Positions 17,661 to 18,518 of a stretch of DNA of 64,000 bases are shown here, piece after piece. A program made the translations under genes and the position numbers. The notes under the pieces are model-generated. The model searched no databases and had not been told where the DNA came from. It worked only from the letters and a program-made list of their open reading frames with translations. Location: positions 732,562 to 796,561 of the forward strand of contig OY970216.1 in the NCBI GenBank assembly GCA_963713955.1. Direction: 5' to 3'. The first letter of the stretch is position 1. The number at the start of each line of letters is the position of its first letter. The DNA comes from an uncultured bacterium. Lineage in GTDB: Bacteria; Patescibacteriota; Minisyncoccia; UBA6257; GWB1-50-10.

Positions 17661-18395
17661 TCATTCGTGAGTGAATACCTTCACGATGGGGTCGAAATCT
17701 CCCTCCATGATTCTCTCGATGTTGTGAAACTTTTTGCCGATACGGTGATCGGTGATCCGGTCTTCCGGAAAATTGTACGTCCGGATTTTTTCCGATCGTT
17801 CCCCCGAACCGATCTGGGATTTTCTCATCTCATCGACCGATCCGGTTGCCTTCAATTGTTCCATCTCATAGAGTTTGGCGCGCAGCACTTCCATGGCCTT
17901 CTCCCGATTCGCATGCTGGAAACGCTCTGACCTGCACGAGACCACGATGCCCGTTGGCTTGTGGAGAATCCGGACGGCTGTTTCAACCTTGTTGACGTTC
18001 TGGCCGCCGGGGCCGCCCGCCCTTGAAAAGGTGATTTCCAAGTCATTCTCCTTGATCTCCACGGCTTTGGTCTCAACGACAGGTAAAACGGCAACCGATG
18101 CCGTAGACGTATGGATGCGTCCCTGACGCTCCGTGAGCGGAACGCGCTGAACCCGGTGGACGCCCGATTCTTGCTTCAGGGCATCGTAAACGCCTTCCCC
18201 GACTATTTCGGCGATGAGCGTTTTGTATCCTCTCGCTCCCGACTCCGAAGCATCGAAGATGGAGAAACTCCACCCTTTCTTCTGGGAGTATTTTTGATAC
18301 ATCCGCGCAAGATCTCCCGCGAAAAGAGACGCTTCATCGCCCCCCGCTCCCGCCCGGATTTCAAGTATGATCTTGTTAATATCTTGTTCTGTCAT
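17661..18395 (-). CDS. prfA: peptide chain release factor 1 lacking the N-terminal domain 1
   Basis: 244 aa. PLT (PxT) anticodon motif, GGQ motif ([10 protein letters not shown]), RVQRVP. Aligns to E. coli RF1 from ~residue 110 onward. Confidence 0.8.
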
Positions 18396-18417
18396 ATCGA
18401 ATACAACCCCTTGAGGT

Positions 18418-18518
18418 TAGAACGGGAGCGAGGCTCGCCGTAGCTTCAAGCGGAGGCGGCCCGCCCCAGCTCGTATTTCAAGAATTATCTTCCTTATTCC
18501 ATCCGCGTTGTCAGCCAT
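18418..18518 (-). pseudogene. 33-codon partial duplicate of the prfA 5' end
   Basis: Encodes [20 protein letters not shown]..., near-identical to prfA residues 5-22 ([15 protein letters not shown]); it then diverges and stops. Confidence 0.35.

Follow-up and report, generated by a model that had tools for sequence, protein, structure and literature searches.

A release factor 1 lacking domain 1 is conserved in a clade of Patescibacteria

The prfA gene in the 64-kb stretch of DNA analysed here (the window) encodes a release factor 1 (RF1) of 244 residues that has domains 2, 3 and 4 and no domain 1, and the same short form recurs across a diverse clade of Patescibacteria. The role ascribed to domain 1 of class-I release factors is the interaction with RF3 and with the L11 stalk. 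To our knowledge, its dispensability had previously been shown solely in engineered E. coli proteins. We found no description of a domain-1-less RF1 from Patescibacteria in the full-text literature; the proteins themselves are already deposited in databases, with generic names such as 'PCRF domain-containing protein'. The best joint explanation, which we consider quite probable, is that the short gene is a functional housekeeping prfA that lost domain 1 once, that its product leaves the ribosome without RF3, and that the stub of a second prfA 5' end found upstream of it in the window is a remnant of recombination.

Results

Domains 2, 3 and 4 are complete

The gene and the motifs of its product are as follows.

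17661..18395, minus strand: prfA, RF1 without domain 1; ATG start, TGA stop, 244 aa, domains 2, 3 and 4
18333..18350, minus strand: GxGGxE tip, codons G16-E21 (GAGGDE); tip of helix α5, reader of the stop-codon U1
18132..18140, minus strand: PxT tripeptide 'anticodon' P86-L87-T88 (PLT), RF1-type, read from the sequence
18000..18008, minus strand: GGQ, G130-G131-Q132, the motif for peptidyl-tRNA hydrolysis, read from the sequence
18407..18412, minus strand: putative Shine-Dalgarno-like AAGGGG, located by eye, 11 nt 5' of the prfA ATG

The first-pass annotation had described an ORF of 244 residues that opens at domain 2 and keeps PxT, GGQ and domain 4, and the Pfam and NCBIfam profiles and the motifs agree. 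Pfam RF-1 (PF00472) matches in full (profile positions 4-116 of 116, E = 4.2e-41), whereas PCRF (PF03462, E = 1.3e-44) is matched over profile positions 96-194 of 194 only. Residues G16, G18, G19, E21, P86, T88 and the GGQ motif are invariant across 84 aligned RF1s; Q83 and I94-H95-T96 are also conserved. In alignments with RF1s of solved structure, residue 6 pairs with residue 85 of the Thermotoga protein, 104 of the Thermus protein and 108 of the E. coli protein, and the short RF1 starts seven residues ahead of the first strand of domain 2. An AlphaFold model calculated with the 84-sequence alignment (pLDDT 84.3, pTM 0.80) superposes on the free, compact RF1 structures 1RQ0 and 1ZBT with TM-scores of 0.82-0.83 (rmsd 3.2-3.6 Å), and contains no extra element in place of domain 1. 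Compared with canonical RF1 (TIGR00019/NF001859; 1RQ0, 1ZBT, 4V63), domains 2, 3 and 4 are 48-57% identical, and the PxT, GGQ and GxGGxE motifs, the compact fold and, in relatives, the adjoining rpmE gene are shared, but the N-terminal helical domain 1 is wholly absent.

The protein belongs to the RF1 family

Comparison with the RF1, RF2 and PrfH families, which the same annotation had proposed, gave the best scores for the NCBIfam prfA models (NF001859, 375 bits; TIGR00019, 363.2 bits), well ahead of RF2 (TIGR00020, 241.9 bits, cut-off 370), PrfH (78.2 bits, cut-off 166.65) and ArfB (55.7 bits, cut-off 100, residues 109-144 only). The protein fails the motif test for RF2, PxT being present and SPF absent. 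Both prfA scores stay below their equivalog cut-offs (400 for NF001859, 423.25 for TIGR00019), because the first ~100 model positions are absent: the alignments begin at model positions 100 and 108, none earlier.

A specialised paralogue, acting like PrfH or ArfB in rescue or quality control while a full-length RF1 is encoded elsewhere, could also give scores just below the prfA cut-offs. PrfH (RF-H, TIGR03072; the partner of RtcB2) is likewise a class-I homologue that has no domain 1 and keeps GGQ (PMC1586002), and our search for a second prfA, for prfB and for prfC covered 64 kb of a contig of ~805 kb. However, the missing model positions account fully for the low prfA scores. The codon-recognition region of PrfH, including its 'anticodon', is divergent and its gene always follows an rtcB-like gene, whereas the short RF1 has an intact PxT and an invariant GxGGxE and is encoded next to aldolase, methyltransferase and SLT genes, with no rtcB. 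The basic C-terminal tail of ArfB probes an empty mRNA channel. ArfB/ICT1 has the RF-1 (GGQ) domain in common with the short RF1 but is devoid of domains 1, 2 and 4, of which domains 2 and 4 are complete in the short RF1. In relatives the short gene has the canonical position beside rpmE (see below), and a second RF-like gene was absent both from the window and from the ±10 kb around each short-prfA locus fetched with long flanks. We consider a paralogue very unlikely.

No domain 1 is encoded nearby

The earlier reading had seen no domain-1-like coding sequence between prfA and the methyltransferase gene upstream. The gap measures 136 nt, and a hidden Markov model (HMM) built from the N-terminal domains of 24 full-length RF1s, run on every stop-to-stop frame with all filters off, bears this out: it returned only noise in the six frames of the window and in 13 related short-prfA loci. 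On this search we rejected a split gene with domain 1 supplied in trans. In tblastn searches of the window, an E. coli RF1 query matched through residues 107-347 only, and neither this query nor the short protein found any other RF-like segment in the 64 kb. Pfam annotation of ~50 further window ORFs revealed type IV pilus, pentose-phosphate, glycolytic and cell-envelope sugar genes and no RF2, RF3, PrmC or L11.

The stop codons of 66 window ORFs are TGA (35), TAA (19) and TAG (12). With all three in use the code is standard. UAG then calls for RF1, and RF2 activity has to be supplied from elsewhere.

The upstream neighbour is part of the context of prfA rather than a conserved partner.

18532..19098, minus strand: putative SAM methyltransferase, 188 aa, with an N-terminal hydrophobic helix

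It bears weak similarity to DOT1 and archaeal protein-lysine methyltransferases. It is found in the nearest relatives only, where it is 48% identical while the flanking genes are 74-89% identical. We rejected it as a substitute for PrmC, as it is absent in L005, L006 and beyond. Also on the minus strand (20868-22121), a 417-aa protein with no Pfam match lies by the aldolase and a PfkB kinase; it is 88% identical and syntenic in relatives.

The short form is conserved across a clade

Among the matches listed, ~240 distinct protein clusters have the same length and start as the window protein, at 63-89% identity. Short RF1s occur in Zambryski-, Jorgensen-, Brenner-, Lipton-, Wolfe- and Colwellbacteria. 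The best 120 relatives of the window protein (75-89% identity; from NCBI, ENA, JGI and Logan) are nearly all 237-260 aa long, the few longer entries reflecting upstream start calls, and carry the names Zambryski-, Jorgensen- and Brennerbacteria, Paceibacterota and Minisyncoccia. The best 120 matches to a second query, the Liptonbacteria protein of locus L012, include Wolfe- and Colwellbacteria and measure 238-254 aa with one of 279; identities are 70-82%, save for P0273, which is identical to the query. Both sets share the start M-x(1-8)-[IV]-x-K-[IV]-[IV]-L-E-[IV]-R-A-G, which in the relatives of the window protein reads M-x(1-8)-INKIILE[IV]RAG[TA]GGDEA. A library clustered at 50% identity holds a couple of representatives of the short family; all its other matches are full-length RF1s at ≤57% identity.

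In the loci of species-representative genomes (L001-L014) an in-frame stop lies 1-34 codons 5' of the match; the exception is L009, where the upstream frame is open but without an ATG. By comparison, the frame extends 101-133 further codons in other bacteria and 70-111 in other Patescibacteria, and domain 1 of the full-length RF1s examined is 77-111 aa long. A stepwise erosion of domain 1 was considered and rejected: the N-termini of 77-81 aa in other Patescibacteria equal that of Thermotoga maritima RF1 (1RQ0) in length.

The short gene also occupies the usual place of prfA. The gene for L31, rpmE, lies directly 5' of short prfA in L009, L013, L014 and L038, as it does of full-length prfA in L022, L061 and L062. 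In the subgroup of the window the order is aldolase-(methyltransferase)-prfA, facing SLT-L25-L31; the window's own rpmE (15081-15335) is near prfA but rearranged to the opposite strand. The canonical position beside rpmE, together with conservation of the short form in differing contexts, argues for an orthologue and against a paralogue or an artefact.

That the truncation stems from an assembly error, a frameshift, recent pseudogenisation or a domain 1 split off as a gene of its own is in our judgement scarcely credible. The genome of the window is a single assembly, exact-match searches of genome and metagenome collections turned up no independent copy of the stub, and repeats do break assemblies here, the contigs of L200-L202 beginning within the stub/spacer region. 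However, the same protein of 240-250 aa is present in hundreds of independent assemblies (NCBI, ENA, JGI, Logan), which speaks against the frameshift or assembly error that the first-pass annotation had named, together with a full-length prfA elsewhere, as its refutation. Only ~50-120 nt separate rpmE from short prfA in L013 and L014, leaving no space for domain 1, the domain-1 HMM is blank in every frame, and the stub arrangement of the L012 lineage recurs in three separate assemblies. The idea of a naturally N-terminally truncated RF1 holds up on clade-wide conservation, on canonical prfA synteny and on the retained decoding and catalytic motifs.

Neighbour-joining of 108 sequences placed 69 of the 71 short forms in a single clade with no long form inside. 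The Nomurabacteria gene in L038 (6280-7082) encodes ~24 residues ahead of domain 2, and its nearest neighbours in a quick tree are the full-length Patescibacteria RF1s of L062, L061 and L022. Judging from this tree, L038 probably represents a second, independent loss of domain 1. As a separate observation, the short RF1 P0046 (L206, 801-1604; also in L207) is 267 aa long and carries an in-frame insertion of 23 residues right after codon 6. From this insertion the extreme 5' end of prfA seems prone to rearrangement.

A stub resembling the prfA start lies upstream of the gene

Four further features of the window lie 5' of the gene or concern its start.

18417..18518, minus strand: 33-codon stub ORF, in frame with prfA, 123 nt apart, with one TAA between
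18460..18491, minus strand: repeat copy A, 32 nt, in the stub (repeat family D1, 81%)
18343..18374, minus strand: repeat copy C, 32 nt, prfA codons K8-G18 (repeat family D1)
18529..18534, minus strand: -10-like TAGAAT, 10 nt 5' of the stub ATG, overlapping the methyltransferase stop codon

The ORF of 33 codons that had been noted earlier as repeating the gene start is real, with 26 of 32 nt identical in the repeat, although its boundary is 18417 and not 18418. Its first 20 codons encode a typical short-RF1 N-terminus (cf. MADTANINK, MADTANINKIILEV in P0080), and the local alignment of stub and prfA scores 34 compared with 15.1±2.2 for shuffled sequences, a score that none of 500 shuffles reached. 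Over codons 7-19 all differences between stub and prfA are at third positions, with zero amino-acid changes. Since the differences are synonymous only, the stub evolved as a coding sequence until recently and is not a copy decaying in place, so that the 'decayed duplicate of its own 5' end' proposed at first does not stand. The alternative suggestion, a rearranged gene, applies to the 5' flank but not to the gene itself, whose short form is conserved clade-wide. On these sequence grounds, the stub probably began as the start of a different prfA allele that was functional.

The stub is absent in the nearest relatives (86-89% identity; L001-L004, L165-L169) and from ~30 other short-prfA loci. 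The sequence GATAGAATAGT at its -10 position is found just 5' of the prfA ATG in L169, and nearly so in L002, so the stub occupies the ancestral promoter-proximal position. TAGAAT is a candidate promoter element; a simple promoter scan of the window did not call it as a -10. Most probably the stub is a displaced prfA 5' end, which would have stayed at the ancestral promoter while the 5' region of the gene was replaced or duplicated through recombination of diverged prfA alleles. It probably gives rise to no functional protein.

Three other readings were discarded. A diversity-generating retroelement was rejected, the differences between stub and gene not being adenine-specific. So was a joining of stub and gene by translational bypass or splicing: any hop would cost the invariant GxGGxE motif some of its glycines, and prfA forms a complete ORF alone. 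The spacer is not an inverted copy of a prfA 5' segment, alignment scores lying inside the shuffle range.

A second stub and a shared spacer motif in Liptonbacteria

L012, whose RF1 is 66% identical to that of the window, has a similar arrangement: a stub stretch followed by RSIHF lies ~130 nt 5' of prfA, in frame, and differs from its own prfA mostly by synonymous changes (e.g. TTA/CTT for Leu, CGC/AGA for Arg). It has no ATG, GTG or TTG start. This arrangement was seen in three independent assemblies of the L012 lineage; the contigs in question, like the contig of the related L202, start within the stub/spacer region, which is what a repeat that interrupts assembly would produce. The sequence GGC|CGC closes both stubs, and the distance from there to the new prfA start is 63 nt in the window and ~85 nt in L012.

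The two spacers contain one conserved element.

18423..18438, minus strand: GC-rich spacer motif of 16 nt, GCGAGCCTCGCTCCCG, 15/16 identical to the L012 motif in the same place

Window and L012 spacers have GCGAGCCTCGCYCCCG in common, while the remaining spacer is unalignable; the spacer alignment scores 27 compared with 12.3±2.2 for shuffled sequences (0/1000). The 1.7 Mb of loci that were fetched contain no further occurrence of GCGAGCCTCGCYCCCG. In antisense, the 3' half of the motif corresponds exactly to prfA codons R14-A17, both for the window (CGCUCCCG:CGGGAGCG) and for L012 (CGCCCCCGC:GCGGGGGCG). The sole difference between the two motifs matches a synonymous GGA/GGG difference in the gene and is thus compensatory, the base pair being U:A in the window and C:G in L012. 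At the junction of stub and spacer, GGCCGC pairs with the 5' half of the motif (GGCCGC...GCGAGCC hairpin). Both long-range helices are present in the minimum free energy (MFE) and centroid folds of window and L012, with fold z-scores of -3.25 (0/200) and -2.24 (3/200) and leader:ORF duplex z-scores of -3.4 and -6.05, respectively.

Candidate explanations of wider reach failed. Leader:ORF pairing is not a clade-wide property (self -20.5 versus cross -20.1 kcal/mol), and apparent matches in L005, L011, L007 and L089 were discounted as lying within upstream coding regions. The motif is not part of a phage or mobile element: its 29 IMG/VR matches, about the number expected by chance, are all in unrelated GC-rich contexts. 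Homology between the L206 insertion and the spacer is not significant, and Rfam gave no match.

Recombination remnant or leader

Stub, GC-rich hairpin and antisense motif could instead form a functional cis-regulatory leader of prfA. The short upstream ORF with its UAA stop and the alternative pairings, stub with motif or motif with prfA codons 14-17, would then couple prfA translation to termination efficiency, bearing a loose likeness to RF2 autoregulation. This reading concerns the 5' flank only and is compatible with our main explanation of the gene. It would account for the conservation of 15 of the 16 motif positions amid unalignable spacer, for the compensatory change, for the long-range helix that both genomes show in MFE and centroid folds alike, for the duplex z-scores, for a stub peptide whose amino acids are conserved in the two lineages and for the window stub's UAA immediately 3' of the motif arm. 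A motif 15/16 conserved across RF1s that are 66% identical and have saturated synonymous sites, with the one change compensatory, indeed speaks against a neutral scar.

However, among ~35 short-prfA loci only two lineages show the arrangement, and the five nearest relatives lack it. Besides this sporadic spread, the startless L012 stub and the lack of clade-wide complementarity between leader and ORF favour a scar. So does the presence in L012 of its own TATAAT 7 nt 5' of the prfA ATG, by which the motif may lie outside the main transcript. A ribosome that pauses on the UAA of the stub would sit over the Shine-Dalgarno-like site of prfA, which leaves no obvious homeostatic logic, and the blank Rfam result points the same way. 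The prfA genes of the co-occurring lineages L199 (= L012) and L202 are mosaics: nucleotide identity is 87-100% from the leader through the first ~350 nt, falls to 56-73% across 350-620 and rises again beyond. Recombination thus takes place between diverged alleles of this essential gene, and the mosaics too favour the scar.

A loose precedent is offered by SXT/R391 elements, which replace the 5' end of prfC (PMC2791158). There, too, a termination gene has its 5' end exchanged, with old and new start copies in the same orientation; but integrase, att sites and an element body are absent at short prfA, and the likeness is one of analogy only. We rank the recombination remnant first and regard a functional leader as unlikely. 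The conserved 16-nt motif is unexplained by the preferred reading. The more specific proposal, that stub, GGCCGC...GCGAGCC hairpin and antisense motif make up a previously unknown leader that tunes the minimal RF1 (e.g. via the stub UAA) and was kept, or passed on through recombination, in two or more distant lineages of Patescibacteria, seems to us slightly less likely again.

Discussion

We propose that domain 1 of RF1 was deleted once in this lineage and that the shortened gene was then held by strong purifying selection. At UAA or UAG the domain 2/4 superdomain would dock in the ribosomal A site through the GxGGxE tip, PxT, Q83 and I94-H95-T96, and domain 3 would place GGQ in the peptidyl-transferase centre for peptidyl-tRNA hydrolysis. 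The factor would then leave the ribosome without RF3, which is assumed to be absent, and without the contact of domain 1 to the L11 stalk. The mechanism is inferred from the structural and biochemical RF1 literature and fits the behaviour of domain-1-less E. coli RF1. Domain 1 is the least conserved RF domain, and prfC is missing from small genomes (PMC1586002). According to the account of Mora et al. (2003) given in PMC1586002, neither codon recognition nor hydrolysis depends on domain 1, truncated RF1 is active in vitro as well as in vivo, and the interaction with RF3 needs domain 1. That account credits Mora, Zavialov, Ehrenberg and Buckingham with showing that truncated RF1 and RF2 keep codon specificity and release and lose the RF3 interaction. 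A link between the missing domain 1 and RF3 or the stalk is thus a reasonable suggestion from published work. The engineered E. coli RF1 and RF2 have the same architecture with domain 1 removed, but they are laboratory constructs in a host that has RF3, whereas the short RF1 is natural, fixed and clade-wide.

The short RF1 is a natural variant of a well-known factor and not a new kind of system; because domain 1 was already known to be dispensable, the finding is notable rather than shocking. What it adds is that a large and diverse bacterial clade apparently terminates at UAA and UAG without domain 1 over long evolutionary time. The clade-wide loss is a natural test of the purpose of domain 1 and opens a comparative one, namely whether RF3, the N-terminal domain of L11 and domain 1 of RF2 co-vary with it. 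The short proteins are also ready-made minimal factors for biochemistry and cryo-EM. Finally, with prfA scores below threshold, annotation pipelines may call RF1 missing, which would affect estimates of completeness and inference of the genetic code.

Other features of the window

An interruption splits the 16S rRNA gene (12369-14699, minus strand) close to the 3' end: the Rfam alignment covers 13279-14699, the universal motif AAGTCGTAACAAGG lies at 12369-12387, and between them is an ORF for a LAGLIDADG homing endonuclease (12531-12959). The interruption is an intervening sequence of ~0.9 kb, of a kind that CPR rRNA genes are reported to carry. In the 23S rRNA gene, the 5' part (1-1560, minus strand) covers model positions 1-1225 in 1560 nt, ~335 nt more than the model. 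Since ~10.8 kb of genes (1560-12369: pilB/pilC-like genes, pilins, signal peptidase, PCMT, tRNAs) separate 23S from 16S, the rRNA genes are unlinked. At 3638-3778 (minus strand) ARAGORN calls an 82-nt tRNA-Arg(GCG) that overlaps tRNA-Thr(TGT) by 14 nt; Rfam finds tRNA-Thr alone, and the Arg call may be spurious or unusual. An IS200-like gene for a Y1 transposase (PF01797) lies at 42169-42933 (minus strand), and the 1591-aa product of 34278-39053 (minus strand), with three lamin-tail (LTD) domains, is probably a giant surface protein.
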